The position numbers and the translations under genes were made by a program. Below the pieces are notes generated by a model, which was not told where the DNA came from, ran no database searches, and saw only the letters and a program-made list of their open reading frames with translations. Positions 11,866 through 62,504 of a DNA stretch of 64,000 nucleotides are shown here, piece after piece (positions within the stretch are counted from its first letter, which is position 1; each line of letters begins with the position of its first letter). Source of the stretch: Verrucomicrobiota bacterium (lineage in GTDB: Bacteria; Verrucomicrobiota; Verrucomicrobiia; JABWAM01). Where the stretch lies: NCBI GenBank assembly GCA_023269615.1, contig JAHFSY010000011.1, forward strand, positions 26,116 through 90,115, given 5' to 3'.

Positions 11866-12088
11866 GGAGGGACACGCTCCGTCGTGTCCGTTGGTGGGTG
11901 AGTTCGCAACTGCCAAACCAACCTTGAAGCGGGAACACACGGTTTCGTCGCCCTCGAAAAGCATCATTGCTTGAAAATCCATTCGTGACGTGGCTGGACA
12001 CGACGGCCCGCGCTACGCCGCTCGCCGTCGCGACGAAGCGCTTTGGCGTAGTCGGATAGGCTTCGGCGAGGCGAGAGCGTGTCCCTCC
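11866..12088. repeat. GGAG-type REP doublet; right copy interrupted by a nested 69-bp insertion
   Basis: GGAGGGACACGCTCCGTCGTGTCC at 11866-11889; inverse copy 11996-12088 split by 12007-12075. Confidence 0.85.
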
Positions 12089-12147
12089 GTTTTTCCAGCC
12101 CCATATTCCCTGTCCTATCCGATTCGTTTTGTTATCATGCAACAACC

Positions 12148-12789
12148 ATGCTGAAAAACCCTTGGCAGCCGGGAAACAAAGACCTCAGCTTCACGTTGGT
12201 GGAACTGGTCGTCGCAATCTCGGTGATCGCGCTGCTCATCGCATTGGTGATCCCGGTCATGGCGCGGGCGAGAGAACGCCAGGCCAGATCCTACTGTCTT
12301 TCCAACATCCGTCAGATCGGCCTGGCTTTCAAACAATACTCTATCGATGGCCTCGACTTTTTTCCCCCATATCCCTACCCCGTTGGTGTTAATCCCTACG
12401 CCACTTCCTCCTCGGTCTTTCTTGGTCTCACCAACGGCCACTATCTGCACGTCGGTAGCATCTACGTCTGCCCGCTCGATCGCTCTCGAAGACCCGGCAC
12501 GGTCAATGCCTTCGGCATCTCCAATAACTCCTACGCCTGCTCCGTGGCCGACCTGACCGGCCGCACGGGCCTCACGGAAGCAGTCACCTCAGACAACCCC
12601 ATGGTCTTCGACCGCGGGCTCGCCGGCGCACCGGGTTGGATCAAAAACCTCACCAACGCCACATGGCTCGCCAGCTCACCCCACGGCACTGATGGCGGCA
12701 ACATCTTTTACGCAGACGGCCGGTCAGGCTTCAAAAATTTCTTCGACACCGGCAAGGATGGCACCAACGGTTTCGTGCTCGAGCCCTGA
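12148..12789 (+). CDS. Prepilin-type N-terminal cleavage / H-X9-DG domain protein (DUF1559-like)
   Basis: FTLVELVVAISVIALLIALVIP, ARARERQARSYCLSNIRQIG, YVCP.D, HGTDGGNIFYADG. Confidence 0.85.
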   Translation: MLKNPWQPGNKDLSFTLVELVVAISVIALLIALVIPVMARARERQARSYCLSNIRQIGLAFKQYSIDGLDFFPPYPYPVGVNPYATSSSVFLGLTNGHYLHVGSIYVCPLDRSRRPGTVNAFGISNNSYACSVADLTGRTGLTEAVTSDNPMVFDRGLAGAPGWIKNLTNATWLASSPHGTDGGNIFYADGRSGFKNFFDTGKDGTNGFVLEP

Positions 12790-12810
12790 TAAATTTGGAG
12801 GAGGCGATTG

Positions 12811-12934
12811 TCCGCAGATTTTCAGAATGACGAACCTTTTTCACGCAGCACCGCTGCGTGAAAAAGCTTTGCGCCTTCGCGTCTTTGCGCGAACCCCTCC
12901 GAAAATCTGCGTCCGTCTGCGAAATCTGCGGAGA
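12811..12934. repeat. Degenerate gene-less CGCAGAT-repeat element with internal hairpin
   Basis: TCCGCAGATTTTCAG ... AAATCTGCGTCCGTCTGCGAAATCTGCGGAGA; perfect 14-bp-arm hairpin 12836-12866 (possible bidirectional terminator). Confidence 0.7.
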
Positions 12935-13026
12935 ATTTCCGACGGCAACAGGGCTCTGCTCCGCTTGAAAGGCAATCTTGCGCAAAACATTCCTTCAATC
13001 CATAATCCCCAACCCATCGCCCCTCC

Positions 13027-14574
13027 ATGAAGGCCCGTTCTCCATCCCGATCGCGTGCCGCTGCCCGTGGCCGGATGCTCACGTCCCCGCTCTCACCCGC
13101 AACTTCCCCCGGCAAGGATTTCAATGCCATGCGCGATGCCGTCAGCAAGGCCTGCGAGCTCAAGACCAAGATCACCTATGACTTGAAGGGACGGAAGAAA
13201 ACCATGGTCGTCTGCTCGCAGGACACACGTGACGAGGTCCTCCGCAAGTCCGCCGAATATCTCAAGATCATCACGGGCAAGCGGCGCCTCACGCCCAAGG
13301 TCAAGAAGGAGATCGTCCGCCACACCCTTGAGAACTTCGACAACTTCTACAACCGCGGGTTCCTCACGTACCGCAAGAGCGTGGCGGAGGCGAAGGATTT
13401 TGCGGCGCTCGAATGGGAGGGGCGCGGCTCGATCATGCACGACCTGCTCGGGCGCCAGTTCATTGACTGCCTCGGCGGCTACGGCATCTACAACATGGGA
13501 ATGTGCCACCCGAAGATCGTCGAGGCCGTGCGCGCGCAGGCGTTGCGCATGCCGCTTTCCTCGCAGGAACTGCTCGACCCGCTGCGCGGCGCGCTGGCCG
13601 AGTTGCTCGGCGAACTCGCGCCGGGCGATTTGCAGGAATGTTTCTTCATCAACAACGGCACCGACGCCGTCGAGGGCGCTCTCAAGCTGGCGCGGCTGCA
13701 TACGAGGCGCGTGGGCTTCATTTCCTCCGTCGGCGGCTTTCACGGCAAGAGCATGGGATCGCTCTCCGTCATGGGAAAACACACCTACCGCCACCCCTTC
13801 GAGCCGCTGCTTCCCCAGATTCATTTCGTTCCATTCGGAGACAAGAAGGCGCTGGAGGACGAGTTCAAGAAATTAAAGGCCGTGGGCGACGACGCAGCGG
13901 CGCTGATCCTCGAGCCCGTTCAGGGCGAGGCGGGCGCCATCGTTCCCCCCAACGATTACCTGCCTGCGGCGCGCAAACTGTGCGATGAGTACGGAACCTT
14001 GTTGATTCTCGACGAGGTGCAGACGGGGTTTGGGCGGACCGGAAAAATCTTCGCATGCGAACACTGGCACGTGGTGCCGGACATCCTCTGCCTCGGAAAG
14101 AGCATCGGCGGCGGCGTGATGCCGCTCTCGGCATTCATGGGCAATTCCGAAATCTGGAAGGTGCTGGAGGAGAATCCTTTCATCCACAGCTCGACATTCG
14201 GCGGAAACCCGATGGCATGCGCGGCCGGCATCGCGGCCATCCACGTGATGCTTGAGGAAAAACTACCGGAGCAGGCAGCCCAGAAGGGGCATTTCATGCT
14301 CAAGCGATTAAAGACATTGAAGGCACGCTACCCGCATATCCTCACAGACGTTCATGGGATGGGCCTCCTCATCGGCATGGATTTCATCAACGATGAAACC
14401 GGCTACCGCGTGGCCGCGGGCTTGTTCAAGCGCGGCATCCTGGTGGCAGGCACTCTCATCAGCTCCAAAACCATCCGCATCGAACCCGCCCTCAACATCA
14501 GCTACGACCTTCTGCATGTGGTGCTCGACAAGCTCGAAGAGGTGCTGCGGGAAATTGCCCATGGAAAAGCATGA
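13027..14574 (+). CDS. patA: Putrescine aminotransferase (PatA/YgjG-like)
   Basis: N.GFL.YRKSV, ALEW, FIDCLGGYG, SQELLDPLR, FHGKSMGSLS, VPDILCLGK, IRIEPAL. Start uncertain (13027/13129/13204). Confidence 0.8.
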   Translation: MKARSPSRSRAAARGRMLTSPLSPATSPGKDFNAMRDAVSKACELKTKITYDLKGRKKTMVVCSQDTRDEVLRKSAEYLKIITGKRRLTPKVKKEIVRHTLENFDNFYNRGFLTYRKSVAEAKDFAALEWEGRGSIMHDLLGRQFIDCLGGYGIYNMGMCHPKIVEAVRAQALRMPLSSQELLDPLRGALAELLGELAPGDLQECFFINNGTDAVEGALKLARLHTRRVGFISSVGGFHGKSMGSLSVMGKHTYRHPFEPLLPQIHFVPFGDKKALEDEFKKLKAVGDDAAALILEPVQGEAGAIVPPNDYLPAARKLCDEYGTLLILDEVQTGFGRTGKIFACEHWHVVPDILCLGKSIGGGVMPLSAFMGNSEIWKVLEENPFIHSSTFGGNPMACAAGIAAIHVMLEEKLPEQAAQKGHFMLKRLKTLKARYPHILTDVHGMGLLIGMDFINDETGYRVAAGLFKRGILVAGTLISSKTIRIEPALNISYDLLHVVLDKLEEVLREIAHGKA

Positions 14575-14578
14575 AAAC

Positions 14579-14661
14579 AACCACGGATGGGCGCAGATGG
14601 GCACGGATCAAACTGCTCAGGCCCTGGCTTATCCGTGTTTCATCCGTGTACATCCGTGGTT
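14579..14661. repeat. Inverted pair of CACGGAT triplet repeats
   Basis: AACCACGGATGGGCGCAGATGGGCACGGAT ... ATCCGTGTTTCATCCGTGTACATCCGTGGTT. Confidence 0.85.
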
Positions 14662-14701
14662 AAAATTCTGATCTCCCACCTGTAGAATCACTGCATTTTT
14701 T

Positions 14702-15418
14702 ATGAATCCATCATTTGAACTCCCGCCCGATCCGCCTCCTCACCTCTCCCACGTCAACCTGGAGAAACATCTCCAGTCGAAAATTCGCATTGTCACCCTG
14801 GGCGACTCGGTCACGTACTCGCAGGCCGACTTCGAGAAATGCTGGCCGGTGGTCCTCGAACGCCGGCTGAAGGAACTTCTCAAGGAGGACTCCATTTCCG
14901 TGGCCAACGCGGGGATCGGCGGAACCACCAGCGGACAGGCGCTTGCACGATGGGATCGCGACGTGGTTCCTTACAAGCCAACCGTCCTCATTCTGGCATG
15001 CATCCTCAATGACGGTTACCTGCGTGATGGCGTGAAATGCGCCGGGTTCGGAAACAAGTTCACGAAGCACACGCGTCGCGAGGCCACCGCCTGCTGGACG
15101 GAGCTCGTGCAGCGCGCGAAAAAGATCAAGGCAAAAACCGTGCTCTGGACGACGAACCCATGGCTGACCTACTGGGTGAATGAGGCCTCAGACGACTGGG
15201 TCTATGCGCAGGACCGTTCGTATGACCGAATCCGCCGCCGTTACATGAAATTCGCGGCGAACAACAAGCTGCCCCTCGTGGACACCTATCGCGAGTTCAT
15301 GAAGCAACATGACGTTGCAAGCCTGATGGATGACTGGCTGCATCACAGCGCCAAGGGAGCCGAGCTGATCGCCGGGTGCATCGCGAACCAGGTCGCCGGC
15401 ATGATCGGAAAGAAATAA
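14702..15418 (+). CDS. SGNH/GDSL hydrolase
   Basis: LGDSVT, NAGIGG, LND, DWLH blocks. Confidence 0.85.
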   Translation: MNPSFELPPDPPPHLSHVNLEKHLQSKIRIVTLGDSVTYSQADFEKCWPVVLERRLKELLKEDSISVANAGIGGTTSGQALARWDRDVVPYKPTVLILACILNDGYLRDGVKCAGFGNKFTKHTRREATACWTELVQRAKKIKAKTVLWTTNPWLTYWVNEASDDWVYAQDRSYDRIRRRYMKFAANNKLPLVDTYREFMKQHDVASLMDDWLHHSAKGAELIAGCIANQVAGMIGKK

Positions 15419-15424
15419 AACCCG

Positions 15425-15820
15425 TCACCTTTTCCGCACTTCAAGCCAGCGGGCGAGACACTTCAACGTCTTCGGGCTGATGTGATGCTCCATGCCCTCC
15501 GCGTCCGCGTCCGCCGTCCTGGCGTCCACACCCAGCTCGATGAGAAACTTGCGGATGAGACGATGGCGGCGCTGCATGTCGCTGGCCGCCGCGCGGCCCG
15601 TGCGCGTCAGGGTGAGCCCGCGGTATTTCTCATACGTGAGATAGCCGTTGCGCGAGAGCTTCTGGATCATGCGCGTGACGCTCGGCCCCTTCAGCTCCAG
15701 GCGCTGCGCGATCTCCACCGCCTTGGCGTACCCCTTGCTCTCGATCAACTCGTAGATCGCTTCAAGATAGTCCTGCTCCGCGGGGCTGACGCGGTGATTG
15801 TCCCGGGCGTTGCGCTTCAT
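15425..15820 (-). CDS. mntR: DtxR/MntR-family metal-dependent regulator
   Basis: DYLEAIYEL...PSVTRMIQKL...YEKYRG...RRH...DAEGMEHHIS; adjacent to mntH. Confidence 0.9.
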   Translation of the reverse strand: MKRNARDNHRVSPAEQDYLEAIYELIESKGYAKAVEIAQRLELKGPSVTRMIQKLSRNGYLTYEKYRGLTLTRTGRAAASDMQRRHRLIRKFLIELGVDARTADADAEGMEHHISPKTLKCLARWLEVRKR

Positions 15821-15881
15821 CCGCCCTCTTCTATTCACGACCGGACGGCCACGCAAGACAAATAGGTCGTTGCCACAATTG

Positions 15882-15895
15882 TTAGCCACGGCTAA
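15882..15895. promoter_or_regulatory. Candidate MntR box TTAGCC-AC-GGCTAA
   Basis: Perfect palindrome between mntR and the porin; 18 bp upstream of TTGACA (15914). Confidence 0.65.
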
Positions 15896-15948
15896 GATTC
15901 ATGGCAATCATGATTGACACGGCCGCGCGCATGCCTAGGAATGAAAGC

Positions 15949-17298
15949 ATGACCCCTCAAGGGATTTTTCCGGCATTTGCGGTCCTGCTCCTGCTCTCCG
16001 TCCCCTGGCTGAGGGCGCAGGAGCAGACCACCTCCCTTGTGGAGGGGCTGGCGAGGGACATCCACTTCTCCGATCGGATGACGGGCGACTGGGGCGGGGC
16101 GCGGGCAACGCTTGCCGAGCATGGCGTGGACTGCGTGCTCGCCTATACCGGGGAGGCGATGACCGATCTTTCCGGCGGATTGCGACGGGGAACCGCCGCC
16201 GAGGGGCTTTGGGAGATGGGTTTTGTCACCGACCTAGAGAAACTTCTCGGCTGGAAGGGAGGCACGTTTCATGTGTTCAGCTACTGGCTGCATGGAGCGA
16301 GCCCAACCTTCAAGTACGTTGGCGACATCCAGGGTGTAAGCAACATTGATGGCTTTGACACGCTTCGTCTCAATGAGCTCTGGCTCCAGCAGGAATGGCT
16401 GGACAACCGACTTTCGTTGCGATTCGGGCAGCTGGCGGAAGATGAGGAATTCATGATCGGGGAATATTCGTCGCTTTTCATCAATGGTGCGTTTGGCGAT
16501 ACGGTCACCGTGAGCGGCAACCTGCCCGTTCCAACTTATCCGATGAGCGCCCCGGGCATCCGTCTCCGAACCGACCCCGTGGATTTCTTCTATTTCCAGG
16601 CCGCGGTGTACGATGGAGATGTGTCGGCCCAAAACCTGAACGACACCGGCACACGCATCAACATCAACCGTCACGACGGATTCTTTTCGATCTACGAGAT
16701 GGGTTGCCTGGTGAATCATGAAAAGAACTCCAAGTCCCTGCCCGGCTCATACAAGTTTGGCGCCTGGTATCACACGGGTTCGTTTGGCGACCAGCTGGCC
16801 GATGCGGATCATCTGTCCCTGGCAGATCCCGCATCCAGCGGGACACCCGTGTTCCATCAGGGCAATTACGGGCTCTACGGCATGGCCGACCAGATGGTGT
16901 ACCGGGAGGACGCGAAGTCGAAACACCCGCAGGGGCTCGGGCTTTTTTTCACAGGAGGAAGCGCCCCGAACGACCGCAACCTGGTCTCGCTCCAGCTCGC
17001 GGGCGGACTTCATTACACGGGACTTCTGCCGGGCCGCGACGAGGATCTCCTGGGTCTTGCCGTGACGCATGTGGACATCGGCGACAACGCCCGCCAGTTC
17101 GATCGCGATACCAACGCCTTCAATGGCACGGATAACGCGATCCGCGATTATGAAACGACCATGGAATTGACGTATCGCTACGTGGTGAACGAGTGGTGCT
17201 TTCTCCAGCCGGACGTCCAATGGGTCCTGCACCCCGGCGGCTCCCCCGCCGTCGGGGACGCGGTGGTGGCTGGGATGCGATTCCAGGTGCTCTTCTGA
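15949..17298 (+). CDS. OprB-family outer-membrane porin
   Basis: Signal peptide, TGDWGGAR..L, DLEKLLGW.G, LNELW, SLRFGQ, ELTY, LQPDVQW..HPG, C-terminal Phe. Confidence 0.85.
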   Translation: MTPQGIFPAFAVLLLLSVPWLRAQEQTTSLVEGLARDIHFSDRMTGDWGGARATLAEHGVDCVLAYTGEAMTDLSGGLRRGTAAEGLWEMGFVTDLEKLLGWKGGTFHVFSYWLHGASPTFKYVGDIQGVSNIDGFDTLRLNELWLQQEWLDNRLSLRFGQLAEDEEFMIGEYSSLFINGAFGDTVTVSGNLPVPTYPMSAPGIRLRTDPVDFFYFQAAVYDGDVSAQNLNDTGTRININRHDGFFSIYEMGCLVNHEKNSKSLPGSYKFGAWYHTGSFGDQLADADHLSLADPASSGTPVFHQGNYGLYGMADQMVYREDAKSKHPQGLGLFFTGGSAPNDRNLVSLQLAGGLHYTGLLPGRDEDLLGLAVTHVDIGDNARQFDRDTNAFNGTDNAIRDYETTMELTYRYVVNEWCFLQPDVQWVLHPGGSPAVGDAVVAGMRFQVLF

Positions 17299-17327
17299 GC
17301 CGGGAATCGTGGCGCATGCGTATATTA

Positions 17328-17341
17328 TTAGCCTTGGGTAA
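17328..17341. promoter_or_regulatory. Candidate MntR box TTAGCC-TT-GGGTAA
   Basis: One arm mismatch relative to the 15882 box; 18 bp upstream of TTGACA (17360) before mntH. Confidence 0.6.
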
Positions 17342-17394
17342 TATTATTAACCGTGTCTATTGACAGAAGGGCGGCGGTGTGAAAGAATGACGGT

Positions 17395-18774
17395 GTGCTG
17401 CCAGCCATATCCCAACCAGAAACCCCACCCGCGTCCGATTCCCCCGGCTGGCGCAAGGCTGCTGGATCGCCAAGCCTCCCGGAAGTCCATCGCTCGGTCA
17501 CCGTCCCGAAGGAGTACGGCTTCTGGCGGAAGGCGCTGGCTTTCGCCGGCCCCGGCTATCTCGTGGCGGTGGGATACATGGACCCTGGCAACTGGGCGAC
17601 CGACCTGGCCGGCGGCTCCAAGTTCGGATACACGCTCCTGTCGGTCATCCTGCTTTCGAACCTGATGGCCATCCTGCTCCAGTCGCTTTGCGCGCGGCTG
17701 GGCATCGTCACGGGACGCGACCTCGCGCAGGCCTGCCGCGATCATTACCCTGCTCCGGTTTCATTCGGGCTGTGGATCCTGTGCGAGATTGCCATATGCG
17801 CCTGCGACCTGGCGGAGGTGATTGGCTCGGCCATCGCCCTGAACCTTCTCTTCCATATCCCGCTCATCTGGGGTGTGTGCATCACCTCGCTGGACGTGCT
17901 GGCCGTGCTGTATTTGCAAAACAAGGGATTCCGCTACATCGAGGCCCTCGTCATCACACTCATCGTTCTCATCGGCGGATGTTTCGCCATGGAGATCGTC
18001 TTTTCGCGCCCGGATATGAGGGCCGTGCTGGGAGGCTTCGTCCCGCGCCTCGAAATCATCCGCAACCCGGAGATGCTCTACATCGCCATCGGCATCCTCG
18101 GTGCCACCGTGATGCCCCACAACCTCTACCTCCACTCCTCGATCGTGCAAACGCGCAAGTATGAGCAGACATCCGAGGGGAAGGCCGAGGCCATCAAGTT
18201 CGCCACGCTCGATTCCACGGTGGCTCTCATGTTCGCACTCTTCATCAACGCCGCGATCCTCATCGTGGCCGCCGCGACGTTCCACACGCGCGGGCAGACG
18301 GAAGTCGCAGAAATCCAGGAGGCCTACAAGCTGCTCAGCCCGACTCTCGGCGCATCGCTCGCGAGCGTTGCCTTTGCAATCGCCCTGCTCGCATCGGGTC
18401 AAAACTCGACGCTCACGGGAACGCTCGCGGGACAGATCGTGATGGAGGGATTCCTCAACATCCGCCTCCGCCCGTGGTTGCGCCGCCTCATCACGCGCCT
18501 CATCGCCATCGTTCCCGCCGTCATCTGCACGGCGATGTACGGCGAGAGCGGGACCACACGCCTCCTCATCTTGAGCCAGGTGGTGCTTAGCCTCCAGCTG
18601 AGCTTCGCCGTCATCCCCCTCATCCTTTTCACCAGCAGCCGGAAAAAAATGGGTGAGTTCACGAATGCCATGTGGGTTCAAATTCTGGCATGGATTACCG
18701 CCTCGATCATCGTCATCCTCAACGTCAAATACCTGCTCGACTTTTTCGGCATCACCGCGTGGCTTACCCGCTGA
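17395..18774 (+). CDS. mntH: Nramp-family Mn2+ transporter
   Basis: [43 protein letters not shown]. Confidence 0.95.
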
Positions 18775-18778
18775 CCCC

Positions 18779-19198
18779 ATGTACAAGAACATCCTCGTCA
18801 CCCTGAACAACAGCGAACAGGACAAGAACCTGCTCGCGCACGTGTCCGAGCTGGCCCGCCTGACCCGCGCACATCTGCTGCTCGCGCATGTCGCCGACGG
18901 CTGGGCGGCGAGGAATTACGACGCCCTGAAGCTTGCGGAGTCCGAGGAAATGAAAGCTGACCGCGCCTACCTCGAAGGCATCGCCGGACAGATGAAAGGT
19001 GAAGGTCTGCAAGTATCCACACATCTCGCGATGGGCGATCCTCCCGCGGAAATTCTCAAAGTAGCGGAGAGGGAAGGTTGCGACCTGATCGCCATGACCA
19101 CCCACGGCCATCGTCTGCTGGGCGACATCATCCTCGGCAGCACCATCGAAAACGTTCGTCACAAATCCCGGATTCCAATCCTCGTTGTGCGAGGTTGA
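18779..19198 (+). CDS. Universal stress protein
   Basis: MYKNILV...GDP..EI...DLIAMTTHGH...LGS...PILVV. Confidence 0.9.
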   Translation: MYKNILVTLNNSEQDKNLLAHVSELARLTRAHLLLAHVADGWAARNYDALKLAESEEMKADRAYLEGIAGQMKGEGLQVSTHLAMGDPPAEILKVAEREGCDLIAMTTHGHRLLGDIILGSTIENVRHKSRIPILVVRG

Positions 19199-19251
19199 CC
19201 GCGGATGGACGGATCGGTCTGCCCGTTTTGATTTGGAATCGGCTCGTCATT

Positions 19252-19333
19252 CTTGTGCCTCTTGCGCCTTTTTGTGGCCATTTTCCGCGTGCCGAACAGA
19301 CGAATTGGCCGCAAAGAGGCACAAAAAGCACAG
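19252..19333. repeat. Inverted pair of GC(A/G)CAA(A/G)A triplet repeats
   Basis: CTTGTGCCTCTTGCGCCTTTTTGTGGCCA ... TGGCCGCAAAGAGGCACAAAAAGCACAGG. Confidence 0.75.
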
Positions 19334-19475
19334 GGCAACCACCCCGCATCCAGATTTGGAAGAACCTCTGAGTCCAAATGCGTAAGCCATGACTCTCGCT
19401 TGCTCCACCATGCCTTTGTGCTAAACATGCATAAACCATCGCGCAACATTTCCAAATCAACCCAAGGAGTTTCCC

Positions 19476-41341: not shown

Positions 41342-41706
41342 AACTTCCAACGTCGAACTTCGAACATCGAACATCCAACAATCGAGCTGCGTAGAAACGC
41401 GTATTCCGAAATGGAGGGACACGCTGCCTCCTACGCCGACCCGCGCTACGCCGTAGGCTTCGGCGAGGCGAGAGCAGCATTGGCTGCGAAGGCCGAGTCG
41501 TCGTGTCCACGGGATCCAGGGGGTGAGCGGAAAGGCAAAAGTTGAAGTGTGGGGGATTTAGAAGACGGAACATACAAACCACGGAGGCACGGAGGAGGAA
41601 AGGAAAATGGTGTTTAGAATCAGAAAGCCGAAGGCTGCCCGCGCTACGCCGCTCGCCGTCGCGACGAAGCGCTTTGGCGTAGTCGGATAGGCTTCGGCGA
41701 GGCGAG
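41342..41706. repeat. Repeat pile-up: TCGAAC(A/T) heptamers, triple-nested GGAG REP, CACGGAG repeat, 69-bp composite element
   Basis: 41342-41379; 41413-41508; 41577-41595; 41638-41706. Confidence 0.85.
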
Positions 41707-47729: not shown

Positions 47730-47742
47730 GCGGCGGCGGCGA

Positions 47743-48092
47743 GTTTCGCGCAAAGACGCAAAGGCGCAAAGCCTTCCCTTGGTCCCGATTTCTCCGCAGA
47801 TTTCGCAGATGGACGCAGATTTCTGAACGGCAAACAACCGTGCCATTCTGATTGAAAGCCAAGCTTTCAATCAGAATGGCACGGTGGGATCACGGGCTCC
47901 GCCGGCAGCAGGAAAACTTGGCGCCTTTGCGTCTTCTCGCCTCGCCAAAGCCTACGGCGTAGCGCGGGTGCGCGAAACCTTCCGAAAATCTGCGTCGCTC
48001 TGCGTTAATCGGCGGAGAAATCGGGCGTGAGGGCAGGCCCGGATTTATGGATTCACTTTCTTCTGGATTCTGACTCCTGACTCCTGAATTCT
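47743..48092. mobile_element. Gene-less derivative of the GxxExxY element interleaved with other repeats
   Basis: Ends 47776-47823 and 47986-48034; 23-bp-arm hairpin 47837-47885; CGCAAAG pair 47743-47771/47917-47978; 33-bp insert 47936-47968; CTCCTGA heptamers 48061-48092. Confidence 0.7.
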
Positions 48093-54461: not shown

Positions 54462-54530
54462 TGTAGGAGCCGCTGTCAGCGGCGACCGGGAATGGGGGCT
54501 CGGGAATCGCCGCTGACAGCGGCTCCTACA
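54462..54530. repeat. GTAG REP doublet (same arms as 6892-6961)
   Basis: 24-bp perfect inverted arms with a different spacer. Confidence 0.9.
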
Positions 54531-54567
54531 GCACCAAACTGCTACGATTTGACGATGGGGCGGAAAG

Positions 54568-55743: not shown

Positions 55744-55825
55744 GAAGCCGCAGAGACTATGCCGGAATCGGCAGCTTGTAAATCCATCCCGCAGACTTGC
55801 GCTGGGCTTACGCAGCTAAGAACAG

Positions 55826-55977
55826 AAAGCCACGGATGAACACGGATGAAACACGGATAAGCCAGTGCTTGGCACACCAAGCACTGGCAGAACCAGCAAT
55901 CATGGAGGGCTTATCCCTCTATTTTGGCTGTGCCAAAATAGAGTATCCGTGACAATCCGTGTTTCATCTGTGGCTTT
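55826..55977. repeat. Inverted pair of CACGGAT triplet repeats with two internal palindromes
   Basis: AAAGCCACGGATGAACACGGATGAAACACGGAT ... ATCCGTGACAATCCGTGTTTCATCTGTGGCTTT; hairpins at about 55861-55888 and 55917-55943. Confidence 0.85.
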
Positions 55978-56094
55978 CCCCCTCTTTTTCCATGGGATCA
56001 TTGTTGAAAATTTCAAATGCGTAAGCCCTGCAGACTTGCGCCCCATCGCATAAATTTCGTGACGCGTCGCGCATCATCGTTTATTCGTAGGGGC

Positions 56095-57291
56095 GTGACA
56101 GCCATCCTCGCATTGGAAGACGGAACCGTGTTTCACGGAGCGGGCTTCGGAGCCCAGGGCTCCGTGCTTGGCGAGGTCTGTTTCAACACCTCGATGACAG
56201 GCTATCAGGAAATCCTCACCGATCCCTCGTACAAGGGGCAGATCGTGACGATGACCTATCCGCTCATCGGCAATTACGGGATCAACGCGCTCGATGTGGA
56301 GAGCACCCGACCGCATGTGTCGGGCTTCGTGATCCGCGAACTCTCCCGCGTCGTTTCGAGCTGGCGCTCCGAAAAATCACTCGACCAGTATTTGCGCGAG
56401 AACAACATCCCCGGCATCCAGGGGATTGACACCCGCGCCCTGACCAAGCACCTGCGCAGCCGCGGCGCGATGAAGGGCATTCTCACCACCGAATCCATTT
56501 CCGACAAGGAGGCTGTCGAGCGGGCCAACAAATGGCACGGGCTTATTGGCGTGGACTACGTGAAGGAAGTCACCTGCCGCTCGGAATATGATTGGGATCC
56601 GGAAGACAGCGACAGCCGACGCTGGAGAATTCCCGGCACCAGCAACTCCGTGGGCGGCGCTCCTCACTCTGACGGCGTGGATAACGGCAAGGGCGCAGAA
56701 ACCTATCGCTGGAGCCTGCCGCCTGTCCGTCATCGAATTGTTGCCTACGATTTCGGCATCAAGCACAACATCCTCCGCCGCCTGCGCCAGAATGGCTTCA
56801 AGGTGAAGGTTGTGCCCGCGACCACGCCGTCGGAAACCGTCCTGAAAATGAATCCCGAAGGAATTTTCCTCTCCAATGGCCCCGGCGATCCCTCCGCACT
56901 CGATTACGCGGCGAAGTCGGTGAAAGGACTCATCGGCAAAAAACCGATCTTTGGCATCTGCCTCGGCCATCAGATTCTTGGGCTCGCGCTCGGTGGGAAG
57001 ACGTTCAAGTTGAAATTCGGCCATCGCGGCGGCAACCAGCCGGTGAAGGATCTTTCAACAGGAAAAATCTCCATCACATCGCAGAACCACGGTTTCGCCG
57101 TGGATGCAAAATCGCTGCCGAAGGATGTGGAGCAGACAAAAATCAATCTCAACGACCAGACATGCGAAGGTTTCCGTCATCGCGAGCTCCCCGTCTTCTG
57201 TGTGCAGTATCATCCCGAAGCCTCCCCCGGCCCGCATGATGCGAATGATTTGTTTGCGGAGTTTGCGAAGTTGATCGAGGGGAAGAGATAA
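56095..57291 (+). CDS. carA: Carbamoyl-phosphate synthase small subunit
   Basis: [42 protein letters not shown]. Confidence 0.96.
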
Positions 57292-57292
57292 C

Positions 57293-57349
57293 GGAGGGAC
57301 ACGCTCTCGCCTCGCCGAAGCCTACGGCGTAGCGCGGGCCGTCGTGTCC
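57293..57349. repeat. GGAG REP interrupted by a 33-bp element, adjacent to RAYT
   Basis: GGAGGGACACGCT[57306-57338]CCGTCGTGTCC. Confidence 0.85.
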
Positions 57350-57378
57350 ATCAACGCACCAAAACATCCGGTACGTTC

Positions 57379-57885
57379 CTACCACGCAAGAGAGCAGAGC
57401 TCCCCCTGAAACGCCCATTCCTCCGCTCTGCTGCACAGCCCGGCCCGCACCGGGTTCTGAACCACATATTCCCATTTCCGCTGATAACTCTCCCCACGGC
57501 GCAACTGGGTGTCCCAACACGATCGCTGCCAGATCGGGTGTTCATCAGGCCTTGGCCACTGCCGGGCCGCTTGAGATTTCCAGAATGAAATCCATGCCGC
57601 CAGATCTGATGATTTTTTTGCGGCGGGAGAGCAGAACAGGTGGATGTGGTCCGGCATGATGACGTATCGCCCGACAATCCAATGGCTCGCTCTTTCCCAT
57701 GTCATTTTGAGCAGGCCATGGATGTCGTGTTGGGCGAGAATCCGTTTCTTCTGGTGAGTGCACACGGTCACGAAGACGATGACCGGAGATGCGGACGATT
57801 CGTTTGGATGCAGGTGAATGGGAGTCTTGCGCGATGTGGGGGTGCTCGACACGACCATGGAAAAAAGGTTTTTGGAGAGAGCCAT
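57379..57885 (-). mobile_element. REP-associated tyrosine transposase (RAYT, Y1 HUH family)
   Basis: FVTVCT, YVIMPDHIHL (HUH), WQ...D..LR, YVVQNPVRAGL, W; REP copy 30 bp downstream. Confidence 0.88.
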
Positions 57886-58025
57886 TCAGGCGAAAGGAAT
57901 GAGGGGATCAAGAAACTTCTCTGCAAATCACATGCTTTCCAACGACGCCGGAAATGTGAGGAAAATTATTCGTGGGTGTCAGAGGCAGAAGGAACCGACC
58001 CTGCCGATGTTTCCCCCTAACGTTG

Positions 58026-59969
58026 CTACGGTGAAACCTTGCGGACTTCAGGATATTTTTTGAAATACGCTTCCTTACCTTCGCGCTTCCACCATAAAAT
58101 CCATCGGTCAATCGTAACAAAACGTTTCTCCTGTGGATCACCGGGGCCATAACCTTCATCATGCTCTATGAGCCGAATCAACGCCCCCATGCAGCTATCG
58201 GCGCAACTGAATCCAACGCCACCCCTTCCATCGCTAATCCAACGTGAACCTGTGATTTCGCGCCGGTCAAGCAAATCGACCAAAATGGGCGCTGCCAGCG
58301 GATTCTTGCTGTTTTCGATTTCAGCCACTACCGAACCGAATATCCGCGACGTACCAAGGCTTCCACCTGCTTCAATGTCCTTGAGGGTTGCTTCACGCAA
58401 GAACCGGTAATCGTCCGTACTGCCATATTTGAGCAGGAACGACACACACTCGTATGGAATTTCCTTTTCTGTTGCTTTCGCCATTTCCCGCATTGCAGGT
58501 AGGAATGAAAGATCACCACGCTTGCCAAGTTCTAGGGCGATTTTGGCCTGGTCTTCATCATCTGCACCCACCGCCCACTTCTTCAGGATAGCGATGGAAT
58601 CCACGGCCTTTTTGTCAATTCCTTCAATTTTCACCAAAACATCCACCCGCTCATAAAGCCTGCCCTGCTCCAACCGGGCCTGATAACCCTGAAGAGGTGA
58701 TTTGTCGCTGTTTTCTTTCCACCAAGCCTTGAGGTCCGCAATGACTTTTTCTCGAACTTCTGGCTTTTCATTTGAGAGGTAGGAACTCGATGTGGATGGA
58801 TGATAAAACCGGATGTCTACAATCTTCTCGATGCATTGCACGGCGACATCCTGCACCCGAAGAACGGTTCGATTGGGGTCGAAGTTGCGCCTAAATCCGA
58901 TGGATCGGGTAAGCCTCTTGTCCCCAAGATGTTCAATGAGTGCAGGCACAGCAGACCGCCCAATTTTTACAACCGTGTCACTGATCAAAGTATCCTTTGA
59001 TGTGCTATCGGGAAAAAAGCTTATGGTCATGCAGTGACCTGGCTGACTCATCTGAAAACCATGAACATCCGGAAACCGTGCGATGCAATAGGCAATGCGT
59101 TCCTTTTCAGACAGTGCCCCTAATTCATTGACCACACCCGTCCCTAGTTTCTTATCTTCTTCGACTTGCTCCTTGAGCATTTGAACGTAATCCAGCAACT
59201 GTTCCCGGTATTCACTTTTTCCATAAAATGTCAGAGTGCTTTCCCATTGTTCCAAAACATCCTTACGCAAATCTCCATTTTCAAGCATCTGGGTGCCTTT
59301 GAAGAAGGATTGCCACGCGCCTTCGTTGTAAACGTGCTCGAAGGAAAGGCCACGCTGATTCAAGGCTTCATTGATGATCGCTTTAGCCTCTTCGTTCTTC
59401 CCCAAGAAAGCCGCAGCGTATGCATGATGCAGCAGAAAAACCCCACCGTAAAACGGAAGTCCACCTGCCCCAAAATCCTGAACAAACGTGAAGTCCCATG
59501 GACGTTTGCTGCCGGGATCGCGTTCCTTGAGGAATTTTATCAATTTCGGCAATTCATCGGCATAGTCGGAGGCCTCTACCTTTGAAAAGATACCGCGTGA
59601 AATCTTCCGCTCCGTAAAATCCGGCGACAGCAAGACAAGCTCTCTGCCTTCACCTGCCAACCGCCATGCATTCAAAAACTGGGTTGGGCTTTTTGCATCG
59701 TAGAGACGGACACGCTCCAACTTGCTGAAATTTGGCCACGGAATCGACCGCAAATTTTCGAGTGCTTTGAGATTCCTTTCCCGCCAGTCTTGGCGACTCC
59801 CATCTGCAGGTTGGAATTTATCAACTGCCTCACGCAGGATTCGATAAACCTTATCGGGCATTTCCGTGCGTGGAATGACGTTCTCATTCTGCTCCGCCAC
59901 GGCAACCCCCGCCGTGATACAAACCGCGCCCAAAAGGATGGCACTTTGTAATTTCACCGCGTCCATCAT
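58026..59969 (-). CDS. Large exported hypothetical protein with HEAT-like repeats
   Basis: Signal peptide (AVA|E), AVPALIEHLGDKRLTR...LRVQDVA, APILVDLLD; visibly more AT-rich than its neighbours. Confidence 0.7.
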   Translation of the reverse strand: MMDAVKLQSAILLGAVCITAGVAVAEQNENVIPRTEMPDKVYRILREAVDKFQPADGSRQDWRERNLKALENLRSIPWPNFSKLERVRLYDAKSPTQFLNAWRLAGEGRELVLLSPDFTERKISRGIFSKVEASDYADELPKLIKFLKERDPGSKRPWDFTFVQDFGAGGLPFYGGVFLLHHAYAAAFLGKNEEAKAIINEALNQRGLSFEHVYNEGAWQSFFKGTQMLENGDLRKDVLEQWESTLTFYGKSEYREQLLDYVQMLKEQVEEDKKLGTGVVNELGALSEKERIAYCIARFPDVHGFQMSQPGHCMTISFFPDSTSKDTLISDTVVKIGRSAVPALIEHLGDKRLTRSIGFRRNFDPNRTVLRVQDVAVQCIEKIVDIRFYHPSTSSSYLSNEKPEVREKVIADLKAWWKENSDKSPLQGYQARLEQGRLYERVDVLVKIEGIDKKAVDSIAILKKWAVGADDEDQAKIALELGKRGDLSFLPAMREMAKATEKEIPYECVSFLLKYGSTDDYRFLREATLKDIEAGGSLGTSRIFGSVVAEIENSKNPLAAPILVDLLDRREITGSRWISDGRGGVGFSCADSCMGALIRLIEHDEGYGPGDPQEKRFVTIDRWILWWKREGKEAYFKKYPEVRKVSP

Positions 59970-60185
59970 AGCATCAGGACAAGGCGTAAATCCAATTTTT
60001 AAAAAAACGAATCTGACACATCAGAGAACCGATTTTATTGATTTCTCCAGTGATCCGATTTGGGAAGCGCGAAACACAGGATGAGGTTCCCGTCTTGATG
60101 ATTAGCGATCCCGCGAGTGTCTTTTGTATCATCAAACAGCCCCACGAAGTCCACCGCCCAGTGTTTTAATCCCCAAGCCCAGAAC

Positions 60186-60209
60186 GGACACGACGGAGCG
60201 TGTCCCTCC
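60186..60209 (-). repeat. Intact GGAG REP
   Basis: GGACACGACGGAGCGTGTCCCTCC, identical to 62703-62726 and the inverse of 11866-11889. Confidence 0.85.
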
Positions 60210-60272
60210 GTTTGAGCAGAAAGGAAAATTTCCGCTTTCAGCATTCCTCCGGTTGGGGCATAAGCTTGGGGC

Positions 60273-61595
60273 ATGTTTGAGTATCAGAAAACCTTGAAGA
60301 AGGCGGCGACGGTTTCGGGGCTGGGGCTCCATACGGGCGCGACGGCCACGCTGACCTTTCAGCCCTCACCCGCCAATTTTGGAATTCGTTTTTCCCGCAC
60401 CGATCTGCCGGGGCGTCCCACGGTGAATGCCCTCGTTGAGAACGTGAAGGAGACTCAGCGCGGGACCACGCTCGAACAGGACTCGGTGATGGTGCACACG
60501 GTGGAACACGTGCTCGCGGCGCTTGCAGGCGCGGGGATTGACAACTGCCTCGTCGAACTCGAAGGCCCTGAGCCTCCCATTCTTGATGGAAGCGCCCGAG
60601 AATTTTCCGCGGCGCTTGCCTCGGCTGGCACTGAGAATCTCAAGGCCAAGCGCAATTTCTTCGCGCCTGAGGCCCCGGTCTTTTATCAGCACGACGGCAC
60701 CTCCATCGTGATCCTACCCTCGGACAAGCTTCGCATCTCCTGCACCATCCAGTTCCCCAACCAGCGCCTCGAAAGCCAGCATCTCTCCCTCGACCTGGAT
60801 GAGGGCGTGTTTGAACGGGAACTTGCCCCGGCCCGCACATTTTGTTTCTACGAGGAGGTCAAGCCGCTCATGGACGCCGGGCTCATCAAGGGGGGCAGCC
60901 TCGAATGCGCCGTGGTGATCAAGGATGACGAAATTCTCAGCAAGGAGGCGCTGCGTTTCCGCGATGAATTTGTGCGCCACAAGATTCTCGACATCCTCGG
61001 CGATGTGACCTTGCTCGGCCAGCCGGTCCAGGGTCACATCATTGCCGTGCGCCCGGGCCACGCCGCCAATGTGGCGCTGACGAAAAAGCTTTTTGCCATC
61101 GTGAGGAAGCGGCGCGGCGCGAAAAAGTATCTCGCCGAGGGCGCAACGTACGAGCAGATGGACATCGTGGAATTGCTCAACACGCTGCCGCACCGTTATC
61201 CATTCCTCATGGTGGACCGCATTCTCAAGATCCAGGACAATACCATTGTGGGGTTGAAAAACGTGACGATCAACGAGCCGTTTTTCCAGGGGCATTTCCC
61301 GGGTCATCCCGTGATGCCCGGCGTGCTGCAAGTCGAGGCGATGGCACAGGTGGCGGGGATCCTGATGCTCAAGAAGGGCGAGAACACGGGCAAGATCGCG
61401 TACTTCATGAGCGCCGACAAGGTGAAGTTCCGGAAGCCGGTGGTGCCGGGCGACACGCTTTTCATCGAGGTGGAACTGACCAAGGCGCGCGCCAACAAGA
61501 TCGGCAAGGCACAGGGGCGGATCCTTGTGGAAAATGAAATTGTCAGCGAAGCCGAGCTCATGTTTTCCATCATGGATCGGAGTGCGGAGGCGTGA
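60273..61595 (+). CDS. lpxC: Bifunctional LpxC/FabZ
   Basis: G.GLHTG, TVEHVL, PILDGS, HKILD..GD; LPHRYPFL.VD, FFQGHFP, PGVLQVEAMAQ. Confidence 0.95.
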   Translation: MFEYQKTLKKAATVSGLGLHTGATATLTFQPSPANFGIRFSRTDLPGRPTVNALVENVKETQRGTTLEQDSVMVHTVEHVLAALAGAGIDNCLVELEGPEPPILDGSAREFSAALASAGTENLKAKRNFFAPEAPVFYQHDGTSIVILPSDKLRISCTIQFPNQRLESQHLSLDLDEGVFERELAPARTFCFYEEVKPLMDAGLIKGGSLECAVVIKDDEILSKEALRFRDEFVRHKILDILGDVTLLGQPVQGHIIAVRPGHAANVALTKKLFAIVRKRRGAKKYLAEGATYEQMDIVELLNTLPHRYPFLMVDRILKIQDNTIVGLKNVTINEPFFQGHFPGHPVMPGVLQVEAMAQVAGILMLKKGENTGKIAYFMSADKVKFRKPVVPGDTLFIEVELTKARANKIGKAQGRILVENEIVSEAELMFSIMDRSAEA

Positions 61596-61617
61596 TTTTT
61601 AAACTTTAACTTCCAAC

Positions 61618-61680
61618 ATAGCCGACCCCGACCTTGGCCGGGGTTGGTTTCCGGACCGCGTTCTTGCGAACGCGGCTACA
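61618..61680. repeat. GTAG REP doublet (degenerate)
   Basis: Right arm CCGCGTTCTTGCGAACGCGGCTACA is the inverse of the 38553/49824 family. Confidence 0.7.
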
Positions 61681-61687
61681 AATTCAC

Positions 61688-62458
61688 ATGATCCACAAGA
61701 CCGCCATCATTCATCGCGATGCAGAGGTCCCGCAAGATTGCGACATCGGGCCTTATTGCGTGCTGGGTGCTGGCGTGGTTTTGGGCGCAGGGTGTCGCCT
61801 GCATTCGCACGTGGTGCTGGAGGGGCCGACGCGGATCGGAAAAGGGAACCAATTTTTTCCATTCTGCTCGGTCGGACAGAAGACACAGGACCTCAAATAC
61901 AGGAGCGAGCCGACGCACTTGATCATTGGCGACCAGAATGTGTTCCGTGAATTTGTAACGGTGAACCGCGCGACGGGCAAGGGGGACAAGACGGTGGTGG
62001 GGAGTCACAACACGGTGCTTGCCTACTCTCACATCGCGCATGATTGCGTGCTGGGCAATCACATCGTGATGTCCAACTGTGGGACGCTTGCAGGGCACGT
62101 GACCGTGGAGGACCACGCGGTGATCGGCGGACTGACGGCGGTGCATCAATTTTGCCGGATCGGGAAGATGGCGATCACAGGCGGGTGCTCGAAGGTGGTG
62201 CAGGACGTGCCGCCGTTCATGATGGCGGACGGAAACCCGGCCGAGGTGCGCACGATCAACAAGGTGGGGCTGGAGCGCAACGGCGTGTCGGAAGCGGGCC
62301 AGAAGCATTTGCGCGCCGCGTTCAAACTTCTGTATCGCGAGAGTGGATTGAACATTGGCGACGCGGTGGCGAAAATCCGGAAGGAGATTCCCGATTGTCC
62401 CGAGATCGCGCATCTCTGCAATTTCGTGGACAAGAGCGAGCGTGGGATCAGCCGGTGA
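61688..62458 (+). CDS. lpxA: UDP-N-acetylglucosamine acyltransferase
   Basis: Hexapeptide repeats, QDLKY, HIAHDC, LAGHV, HQFCRIG, DVPP. Confidence 0.95.
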   Translation: MIHKTAIIHRDAEVPQDCDIGPYCVLGAGVVLGAGCRLHSHVVLEGPTRIGKGNQFFPFCSVGQKTQDLKYRSEPTHLIIGDQNVFREFVTVNRATGKGDKTVVGSHNTVLAYSHIAHDCVLGNHIVMSNCGTLAGHVTVEDHAVIGGLTAVHQFCRIGKMAITGGCSKVVQDVPPFMMADGNPAEVRTINKVGLERNGVSEAGQKHLRAAFKLLYRESGLNIGDAVAKIRKEIPDCPEIAHLCNFVDKSERGISR

Positions 62459-62471
62459 GAAGAAAAGGATG

Positions 62472-62504
62472 CCCGCGCTACGCCGGAGGCTTTGGCGAGG
62501 CGAG
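62472..62504 (+). mobile_element. 33-bp micro-insertion inside a GGATGAA-type heptamer run
   Basis: AAGGATG[CCCGCGCTACGCCGGAGGCTTTGGCGAGGCGAG]AAGGCGGAGGGATGAGGGATGAA. Confidence 0.75.

Follow-up and report, generated by a model that had tools for sequence, protein, structure and literature searches.

How a DNA unit of only 33 nt could spread through a genome is the question raised by a 64,000-nucleotide stretch (the window) of a Verrucomicrobiota metagenome-assembled genome, in which such units sit inside hairpins, repeat arrays and each other. To our knowledge, how very small dispersed repeats (SDRs, single REPs) are moved has gone unexplained ever since they were first described. A reading of the window from its sequence alone had proposed that the 33-, 36- and 39-nt units are very small non-autonomous insertion elements of one family, cleanly ended, able to nest and potentially able to enter genes in frame. 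Our analysis supports this core, and the interpretation as a whole in part. The features concerned are as follows, with a vertical bar marking the point of insertion:

11870..11889, minus strand: empty REP copy (GGACACGACGG|AGCGTGTCC), overlooked by the sequence-only reading
11996..12084, plus strand: REP hairpin (arms 11996-12006 and 12076-12084), loop with a 69-nt composite
12007-12020 and 12057-12075 (33-mer halves) with 12021-12056 (36-mer, reverse): type-A composite within the REP at 11996..12084
41413..41508, minus strand: REP with a 39-mer with a 33-mer, a three-deep nest
41426-41439 plus 41473-41497, plus strand: 39-mer in the REP at 41413..41508
41440-41472, plus strand: 33-mer in that 39-mer, junction CTACGCCGA|AGCAGC
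41638..41706, plus strand: 69-nt type-A composite in a short GGCTGAR heptamer context (36-mer at 41652-41687, reverse)
47742..47769, plus strand: octamer-repeat target without an insertion (TTTCGCGCA|AAGACGCAAAGGCGCAAAG), forming the left arm of the inverted pair
47936..47968, minus strand: 33-mer in the same octamer-repeat pair, filling its inverted right arm, whereas the left arm (47742..47769) is empty
57297..57349, minus strand: REP whose loop carries a solo 33-mer (57306-57338), 28 nt past the RAYT stop
57382..57885, minus strand: RAYT (Y1 HUH), 168 aa, NCBIfam NF047646 at 89.5 bits (cut-off 80)
60186..60205, plus strand: empty REP copy
62472..62504, plus strand: 33-mer, loop variant GGA..TT, at a unit boundary of an ARGGATG heptamer array
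62703..62722, plus strand: empty REP copy

All 33-mer coordinates first given for the window hold, and it contains four exact matches where 100 shuffles gave an expectation of zero. Searching the whole genome found 84 copies (58 solo and 26 with a 36-mer), along with both filled and empty sites. The ends are as clean as had been claimed: a filled site minus an empty one leaves the exact unit with no target duplication, and 73 empty REPs are available for the comparison. Unit lengths are 33 nt (57 copies), 69 nt (25), 32 nt (one) and 70 nt (one), so the statement that all lengths are multiples of three is right for nearly all units, the exceptions being the 32- and 70-nt units and one of 37 nt.

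The families follow a common plan within a size range of 30-39 nt. A 5' tail of 5-6 nt that is specific to the family leads into CTAC and GCC; next is an inner stem-loop, which varies, and after it GGC and (C)GAG. Inner loops include GC-TTCG-GC and GC-GAAA-GC, and the 39-mer has symmetric GAA/GAA internal loops. The dominant loop variant differs from genome to genome, which fits the expectation from proliferation within each genome. Inverted similarity within the 33-mer is limited to CTACGCC versus CTCGCC, and its 33 nt hold one central stem, with no distinct left and right subterminal hairpins. The hairpin character attributed to the units is weak by energy: the 33-mer folds with a 5-bp stem plus extension (-9 kcal/mol), but z is -1.0 to -1.3 for the 33-mer and -0.06 for the 36-mer, and all fold z values (-1.3 to 0) are unexceptional.

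In the window genome the 33-mer is hosted by REP loops, by arrays of octamers or heptamers, by the 39-mer and by a single gene; there are at least seven target classes in all. REP loops are entered at one shared bond; 73 are empty, and others hold a 33-mer (3), a 33-mer with a 36-mer (17), a member of the 39-mer family (6) or a 39-mer with a 33-mer (4). The genome also has 109 period-7 arrays, most of them empty. For the copy within a gene (contig C38), all six aligned paralogues are empty.

Nesting is confirmed by the three-deep arrangement of REP, 39-mer and 33-mer at 41413-41508, by 36-mers within 33-mers and, in metagenomes, by a 33-mer within a 36-mer (L156) and 33-mers within inverted 33-mers (L110, L174). 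The 36-mer lies within the 33-mer on either strand (type A, 14 copies; type B, 12) and at a strict site, T|CGGCG, while type-B composites include four different 33-mer loop variants. The 69-nt composite had been thought to move as a unit. Because the 36-mer has its own strict site and has joined four loop variants, it is no less likely that nesting happened repeatedly and independently, and the earlier claim is not borne out.

Composites outnumber solo 33-mers by 17 to 3 in REP loops, and solos outnumber composites by 29 to 5 in octamer repeats, so some of the copy number may stem from amplification of hosts that were already filled. Taken further, this would mean that there is no dedicated transposition: a few ancient insertions multiplied with their host repeats (REPs, arrays) and were spread or homogenised by gene conversion, template switching at hairpins or the uptake of foreign DNA. 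The longer flanking boxes common to REPs are compatible with such passive spread, as are a palindromic chimaera and the 37-nt unit (a hybrid of 33-type tail and 36-type body), both of which show recombination between boxes. However, empty and filled members are mixed in both REP sub-families (13 empty and 8 filled; 11 empty and 3 filled), and single-copy gene sites show clean ends and have empty homologues. Passive spread also fits poorly with a 4-nt target motif that replicates over unrelated unique sites, and overall we consider it unlikely.

That motif emerged from the target-site logo proposed as a check, and it was seen in two data sets. To the left of the 33-mer, 61 contexts have C at -4 (60%), C at -3 (63%), G at -2 (57%) and a purine at -1 (87%), i.e., CCGR|, and 65 metagenome contexts gave 66/61/56/90% at the same positions. 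The sequence-only reading had described every junction as R|AR; this holds in the window genome, where +1 is A in 88% of 36 contexts, but elsewhere +1 is A in only 22-38% and the consistent signal is the left CCGR. The motif of the 36-mer and of a second 33-nt family is T|CGGCG or T|CGCC. Targeting of hairpins and repeats had also been claimed, and it is supported statistically but is only moderate: the junction falls in a predicted hairpin loop at 31/61 insertion sites versus 196/606 control CCGR sites (Fisher p 0.0046), with mean fold energies of -6.9 and -5.4 kcal/mol, respectively.

Beyond the window genome, 67 stretches of species-representative genomes, the majority Patescibacteria, contain the 33-mer, as do at least 120 contigs from metagenomes. 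It is near-identical between phyla at 28 specified positions, and its occurrence is patchy (8/151 genomes in a sample of one Patescibacteria class, 5/41 relatives of the window genome). Since the unit is so alike in two phyla with groundwater habitats in common, its sequence suggests that the 33-nt entity, or its mobiliser, has spread horizontally. All carriers are metagenome-assembled genomes, and one ‘Bathyarchaeia’ carrier contig is bacterial judging by its genes, both of which would be in keeping with an artefact of assembly, binning or sequencing. We give that explanation almost no credence, because the unit recurs in assemblies from many projects, lies in frame in long genes and is accompanied by a target motif, by loop variants and by nested copies, whereas a reversed control pattern had no matches in the relatives or in the Patescibacteria class sample.

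Insertion into genes with the frame kept had been anticipated, and Patescibacteria provide it: in-frame 33-mer copies lie within Pfam-confirmed genes, and proteins with in-frame insertions include RsmH, Mur ligase, DNA polymerase X, SMC, cyclophilin and a PLP-dependent (Orn/DAP/Arg) decarboxylase. Outside the window genome, 82 copies are in open frames of at least 200 aa, five of which are confirmed genes. These copies favour the sense strand (60 versus 22, p 0.009 against the 60% expected from open frames), a bias that was weak in a second data set (24 versus 12, p 0.26) and that could come from selection on the encoded peptide. Near-identity between phyla might even mean that the whole 33-mer is a conserved functional module under selection, such as a protein-binding site, regulatory RNA or useful peptide. 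Such a module would hardly be expected to sit in non-coding repeats, inside sister elements and, in three sense and two antisense frames, in genes unrelated to one another, and its patchy distribution is a further difficulty.

Empty/filled polymorphism at homologous loci, which the sequence-only reading had made a test of its proposal, is seen in a Zn-ribbon protein family in which four distant orthologues carry an identical copy (33/33) at one codon. Their proteins share 45-52% identity over the last 150 residues and their flanking DNA 54-70%, so it is hard to see how passive spread would leave the unit itself 100% identical. Complete identity in four diverged orthologues could again be ascribed to function. 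However, the site is empty in 119 of the 120 closest homologues, which therefore work without the 33-mer, and a homologue 93% identical (139/150) to one carrier is also empty; we regard a functional module as very improbable. Two further filled copies occur at this site in metagenomes (L130, L151), and the codon appears from these sequences to be a place of recurrent, recent insertion.

The explanation we favour, to which we give about an even chance as a whole, is that the superfamily integrates as discrete units, likely single-stranded, through a trans-acting Y1 HUH nuclease. Several of its steps are shown. Each family enters at an exact phosphodiester bond, without target duplication and in a fixed orientation to a short motif. 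It favours tandem arrays of heptamers or octamers and small hairpins with exposed loops, and these sites include a box conserved in the sister elements, GCC-GA|A-GC, where insertion gives rise to nests. Copies landing in genes persist as insertions of 10-13 residues, because the units come in multiples of three nt and the majority of frames are open. As to the rest, a 33-bp duplex is too rigid for a paired-end double-stranded transposon, so we infer that the intermediate is most likely a single strand, excised and rejoined in peel-and-paste style by a Y1 HUH enzyme (RAYT or IS200-like), with the CTAC before the stem acting as the 5' tag does in REPs.

Single-strand specificity and the missing target duplication would also follow if the spread were RNA-mediated, i.e., if the unit were transcribed, folded and then copied back into DNA or reverse-spliced into single-stranded targets by a reverse transcriptase or an RNA-guided activity. 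The GC-TTCG-GC, GC-GAAA-GC and GAA/GAA loops are of kinds that are stable in RNA, gene copies favour the sense strand, and the REP hosts resemble terminators (a T-run follows 36 of the 73 empty REPs), which implies that they are transcribed. We nevertheless think an RNA route improbable, given that no Rfam family matches anywhere in the 64-kb window and that the near-equal use of both 33-mer strands by the 36-mer (14 versus 12) is a poor fit to transcript orientation.

For the Y1 HUH explanation, the enzyme assignment is the weakest step. The window genome has four Y1 genes, one of which is the RAYT at 57382..57885, a candidate for the trans-acting mobiliser. Its stop is 28 nt from a filled REP, there is none upstream, and its match to Pfam Y1_Tnp is below the cut-off (18.1 versus 23 bits). 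The other three have no REP or element within 1.5 kb. Nuclease or transposase genes flanked by the unit had been proposed as something to look for, and what we found is one Y1 gene of four with a REP within 1.5 kb and none (0/4) with a REP or element on both sides. All five of the element-bearing genomes examined have Y1_Tnp matches (3-6 each), and a 328-aa Y1 protein is present in 22/41 relatives, including 5/5 with the 33-mer and 17/36 without it. Across the Patescibacteria class sample, Y1_Tnp occurs in 6/8 carriers of the element and 88/143 non-carriers, none of five element-bearing Patescibacteria genomes has a RAYT above the NCBIfam cut-off, and a comparison of one Patescibacteria Y1 protein with that of the window genome gave just 28% identity. 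The HUH-like mobiliser of the sequence-only reading thus has Y1 genes to draw on, yet they lack a specific association with the elements. Orientation relative to replication, judged by local GC skew on fragmented contigs, is 23 versus 39 copies (p 0.056), a non-significant trend which runs opposite to the peel-and-paste expectation. The fragmented contigs showed no excision products, circles or within-population polymorphism.

Taken jointly, the observations would describe a new class of 30-39-nt frame-preserving ‘micro-transposons’ common to Verrucomicrobiota and Patescibacteria: single strands which home 3' of a 4-nt motif into hairpin loops, hit the same codon repeatedly in diverged orthologues, diversify through exchange of 5' tails and inner stems, and actively extend essential proteins of bacteria with small genomes by loops of 10-13 residues, with either no linked transposase or a domesticated host Y1 nuclease. 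We advance this joint reading tentatively, judging it slightly more likely to fail than to hold in full. If the domesticated Y1 version is true, the natural substrate of that nuclease would have been identified. The system suits direct biochemical testing, as its ends are exact, its 4-nt target has been replicated, its family-specific tails go with different targets, empty/filled pairs are plentiful and a RAYT gene adjoins a filled site. In Patescibacteria, core proteins have repeatedly gained in-frame insertions from such units, which matters for the annotation, alignments and phylogenies of this group and for understanding how proteins gain short peptides.

The units have more precedent than the sequence-only reading implied; the family is real, but cyanobacterial SDRs, Rickettsia RPEs and intragenic REPs are precedents. 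SDR1-8 of Nostoc and its relatives, reportedly described by Elhai and colleagues in 2008, are said to nest in themselves and each other and to sit in tandem heptamer arrays; they are reportedly 21-27 nt long and limited to a cyanobacterial subgroup. Going by that description, our units resemble SDRs in their very small size, precise insertion, self- and cross-nesting and heptamer arrays, and differ in being 30-39 nt, with lengths almost always divisible by three, occurring in Verrucomicrobiota and Patescibacteria, often being intragenic and having a CCGR| target.

REPs usually have the layout 5'-GTAG-stem. All of our families instead have CTAC 5' of the stem, with GTAG only 3' of it on the complementary strand, the mirror image of that layout. 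They also differ from REPINs in being singlets which insert into the loops of other REPs and which, outside the window genome, are often intragenic. According to Di Nocera et al. 2013 (PMC3733652), GTAG- and CGTC-tagged REPs are 20-40-bp repeats with a stem and a conserved tetranucleotide tag that stays unpaired; Y1 HUH enzymes (RAYT) are regarded as their mobilisers, and intragenic REPs are found mostly in the verrucomicrobium Opitutus terrae. The paper does not use the word ‘nested’. Our units likewise combine a short stem with a tetranucleotide tag, and a RAYT adjoins a filled REP in the window.

IS200/IS605 elements insert without target duplication, 3' of a short specific sequence and in a strand-specific manner, using single-stranded targets and a Y1 HUH enzyme in trans; they require a pair of dissimilar subterminal hairpins and measure about 100 nt or more. 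The micro-elements share the absence of target-site duplication and the insertion 3' of a tetranucleotide (CCGR, 61 + 65 contexts) but have a single central stem within their 33 nt, and no tnpA is linked to them. RPEs are several-fold longer than our units. They are palindromic selfish DNA lying in frame in protein genes that still function, and unlike the micro-elements they are confined to Rickettsia, with nesting and cross-phylum sequence sharing unreported in the available part of that paper (PMC3733652). Finally, like MITEs, the micro-elements are non-autonomous and multicopy, but they have neither terminal inverted repeats nor target duplications. The window genome also has a 142-bp MITE, with an apparent 5-bp duplication, in the REP loop that the micro-elements use.

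Four intact copies of the 33-mer lie in the window, at 41440, 47936 (minus strand), 57306 (minus strand) and 62472, and none occurred in 100 shuffles. Two 69-nt units (composites) each consist of a 33-mer split by a 36-mer, and in one case the nesting runs three deep, with a 33-mer inside a 39-mer inside a REP, the hairpin repeat that hosts many units. Empty copies of the REP hairpin and of an octamer repeat are present in the same window as filled ones, and subtracting empty from filled leaves exactly the unit, with zero duplicated bases. The units are thus discrete, with exact ends and no target duplication, as the sequence-only reading had described, and every coordinate it gave was confirmed on re-check. 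We consider it very probable that they are insertion elements. No Rfam family reached its gathering score anywhere in the window. The stretch was also found in four groundwater DNA runs from one study, as short contigs only, broken at repeats; the apparent joints in these read contigs have sides of 20-50 nt that derive from other copies and are therefore no sign of polymorphism or circles. No RNA run is listed as containing the stretch.

The genome as a whole (G000; 4.48 Mb, 131 contigs, 58% G+C, with the window on contig C18) contains 102 matches to the left end of the 33-mer, and the right end is also present in 84 of these, giving lengths of 33 nt (57 units), 32 nt (one), 69 nt (25) and 70 nt (one). 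The remaining 18 matches are partial or due to chance. Targets are family-specific, and the dominant variant is particular to each genome.

Host sites of units in G000
REP loops: 20 units (3 solo, 17 composite)
Octamer RCGCAAAG repeats, forward: 34 units (29 solo, 5 composite)
Octamer RCGCAAAG repeats, reversed: 2 units
39-mer: 5 units
Heptamer arrays, three kinds: 14 units
Another small hairpin element: 2 units
Other sites: 7 units (one within a 1363-aa open frame)

A fourth family (33 nt, CCCCG tail, seven copies) is hosted by yet another small element. The genome has 109 period-7 tandem arrays (ARGGATG, AATCCGC, AAATCTC, AACGCGG and others; 62450-62540 is an example in the window), and the idea that such arrays are a product of the elements was rejected, because an element lies near only four of them. 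An autonomous parent, sought in G000 as pairs of left and right ends separated by 0.1-15 kb, was likewise rejected: the sole candidate, 9.2 kb on contig C8, consists of a left end cut down to 13 nt next to long open frames, and the copy further along is rearranged and unrelated. At 47735-47990 of the window, two octamer-repeat arms in inverted orientation (RCGCAAAG three times) enclose about 150 bp with a long perfect palindrome (ccgtgccattctgattgaaag..ctttcaatcagaatggcacgg) and repeats resembling GCAGATT, and this structure is possibly a separate MITE-like unit.

The REP loop is a target shared by several elements, all of which use one identical bond. The sequence-only reading had named filled and empty sites across the genome as a check, and 73 empty REPs (GGACACGACGG/AGCGTGTCC, the slash marking the insertion bond here and below) exist in G000 alongside the filled ones. 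Longer flanks divide the REPs into two sub-families, each with empty and filled members.

Occupants of the REP bond in G000
33-mer: 3 copies
33-mer with 36-mer: 17 copies
39-mer family, opposite orientation: 6 copies (lengths 33, 36 and 39)
39-mer with 33-mer: 4 copies
37-nt hybrid: 1 copy
142-bp MITE: 14 copies (apparent 5-bp duplication)

The MITE, which is bounded by terminal inverted repeats (AGGCYGTCTCAGAAC) with CGGAG apparently duplicated, occurs in both orientations; its 14 filled loops (e.g., on contigs C4, C9, C14 and C22) all lie outside the window. In all REP copies, the one at 60186-60215 of the window among them, the loop ACGGAG is complementary to a CTCCGT 3' of the stem, before a T-run, so two mutually exclusive hairpins are possible. 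A unit inserted at ACGG/AG interrupts the second of these, which is terminator-like, within its 5' arm.

The 33-mer has a left-flank target motif, CCGR, and enters directly after the R. In 61 distinct contexts outside G000, the four left-flank positions are C in 60%, C in 63%, G in 57% and purine in 87%, and in 65 metagenome contexts, which overlap slightly with that set, the values are 66, 61, 56 and 90%. An R/A junction rule had been proposed from the window; it holds within G000, where 88% of 36 contexts have A at +1, but outside G000 (the 61 contexts) the right flank carries only a weak signal. Loops and repeats are preferred: of 61 reconstructed empty sites, 31 have the junction in a predicted hairpin loop, vs 196 of 606 control CCGR sites of the same loci (p 0.0046), and these empty sites fold more stably than the controls (p 0.0016), both with RNA energy parameters and sites that are not fully independent.

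In Patescibacteria, the 33-mer also occupies hairpin loops in which a CCTCCTT- or CTCCCTT-type arm pairs with an AAGGAGG- or AAGGGAG-type arm (carrier contigs L104, L112, L122, L131, L152, L154, L157 and L172; L051, L062 and L073). In these loops the junction is T/T, unlike the CCGR motif, and it is possible that these are anti-Shine-Dalgarno/Shine-Dalgarno hairpins upstream of genes. The elements themselves had been called hairpins, which is only partly borne out: folded as single-stranded DNA, the 33-mer does have a 5-bp stem plus an extension, yet its stability does not exceed that of shuffles, and by the same measure the 36-mer has no stability at all. Conservation across families lies in the sequence of the tail, CTAC-GCC and GGC-(C)GAG; the inner part is variable between families and self-complementary in each.

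Within G000, the 36-mer is nested in the 33-mer in two ways (14 type A, 12 type B). When read on the strand of the 36-mer, the two are one event, with entry between a T or A and the CGGCG that follows it, and they differ in which strand of the 33-mer receives the 36-mer. Five 36-mer copies outside 33-mers follow a T and precede CGCC, CCGG or CCGC. The 69-bp composite was previously thought to have moved as a unit, but the type-B composites contain four loop variants of the 33-mer (GTA in eight, GGA in two, GCA in one, AGA in one), which argues for several independent nestings. Metagenome contigs hold the reverse nest, a 33-mer in a 36-mer (L156), and self-nesting, a 33-mer in an inverted 33-mer (L110 and L174). 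Within sister elements, the favourite site of the 33-mer is a box common to them all, GCC-GA/A-GC. The overall pattern of conserved boxes has 308 matches in the sequence examined vs 31 for its reversed control, and relatives that share these boxes but have other inner stems (e.g., GC-GAAA-GC and ATGGC-TAT-GCCAT) also occur in Patescibacteria genomes.

Frame-preserving entry into genes, which had been anticipated from unit lengths, is borne out: outside G000, many 33-mer copies lie within long open frames, and Pfam-confirmed host genes include cyclophilin, Orn/DAP/Arg decarboxylase, RsmH/MraW, family-X DNA polymerase, Mur ligase and SMC. In open frames of at least 200 aa, 60 copies are sense and 22 antisense (p 0.009 against the 60% sense that stop-free frames would predict); in the second data set by itself the counts are 24 vs 12. 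On contig C38 of G000, the 33-mer interrupts one member of a family of approximately 1400-aa proteins, and the six paralogues that were aligned with it, found at 77-82% identity, are all without exactly those 11 codons. This family has at least 12 paralogues in G000 (on C38, C68, C33, C104, C120, C28, C32, C66 and others), and a variable linker is where the 33-mer has landed in that member.

The strongest in-gene case is a Zn-ribbon protein of Patescibacteria, in which four genomes carry the 33-mer at one codon (..SPD/RPE..). Over their last 150 residues the four filled proteins share only 45-52% identity, and their flanking DNA shares 54-70%, yet every pairwise comparison of the 33-mer gives 33/33 matches. 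An empty homologue matches one of the filled proteins at 93% identity, and 119 of the best 120 of 2952 homologues (E <= 0.001) are empty. The remaining one (P0002, a homologue of the L047 protein) has a different 10-residue insert, SPRSSSDEAG, at exactly the same codon. Several micro-element families may share this codon as a hot spot. In metagenomes, two more copies of the 33-mer occupy this site. Insertion here is recurrent, site-specific and, at least in part, recent.

The records of G000's relatives at family level carry the label Verrucomicrobia, and three of them (G001, G002 and G003) correspond to the coordinates of JAQUAF01, CAYYYL01 and JACQHZ01. Among 40 relatives, the 33-mer (up to two mismatches) occurs in four of nine same-family genomes and in none of 31 outside the family, and the 36-mer has the same counts. 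A scan of one genome per species found the 33-mer in 67 stretches, mostly from many lineages of Patescibacteria and a few from Verrucomicrobia, with host G+C of 30% to 59%. A sample of 151 genomes from one Patescibacteria class includes 8 that carry it, mostly in one or two copies, with 20 in one genome. Metagenomes gave at least 120 stretches. A single carrier contig (L050) is labelled 'Gammaproteobacteria'. Carriage by phage was rejected on zero matches among viral contigs. Spread across domains was also rejected: a carrier contig labelled 'Bathyarchaeia' (L018) holds bacterial marker genes by Pfam (tRNA_m1G_MT (TrmD), ribosomal protein S16, FtsW/RodA and SMC), so its place in an archaeal MAG is probably a mis-binning of bacterial sequence.

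Elhai reportedly described, in 2008, very small nested repeats in heptamer arrays of cyanobacteria. Intragenic REPs, mostly in Opitutus terrae, and Rickettsia RPEs are treated in PMC3733652, whose lists of the former (Additional file 3) may be relevant to whether the family has been described before. Such small nested repeats and intragenic REPs are already known, but the relevant passages of PMC3733652 contain no word of nesting, of Patescibacteria, of a unit common to two phyla or of recurrent insertion at one codon. Literature searches on the unit's ends or peptide gave nothing relevant (the matches were to the 11-mer alone, and those listed were on unrelated subjects), and the main texts on Patescibacteria REPs, CPR palindromic or in-frame repeats, mobile in-frame palindromes and Verrucomicrobia RAYT/REPIN do not describe the family.

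Y1 HUH transposases (IS200/IS605, RAYTs) insert DNA without duplicating the target, on the 3' side of a tetranucleotide and in a fixed orientation, and the micro-elements resemble the products of these enzymes in all three respects. A 33-nt unit would most plausibly, on physical grounds, move as a single-stranded intermediate. G000 encodes four Y1-type proteins, and two of those tested pass the NCBIfam RAYT model, one of them in the window:

57382-57885, minus strand: RAYT, 168 aa (NCBIfam NF047646, 89.5 bits vs a cut-off of 80)

A REP filled with a 33-mer lies downstream of this gene, 28 nt past the stop codon. The sequence-only reading had suggested an HUH-like mobiliser acting in trans; Y1 genes are indeed present, but four tests of their association with the elements gave no specific link and singled out no protein. 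Since, in addition, the Y1 proteins of Patescibacteria are distant from those of G000 and replication-strand bias from GC-skew was not significant, we hold mobilisation by a Y1 HUH enzyme only tentatively, at somewhat below an even chance. In genome G164, a Y1 gene and an element are 0.6 kb apart, but the gene proved to be a neighbour, the element lying within a different open frame. In the Patescibacteria class of genome G041, 94 of 151 genomes (approximately 1 Mb) have Y1_Tnp hits, often as 3-10 paralogues of approximately 220-260 aa, a load that is unusual for such small genomes.
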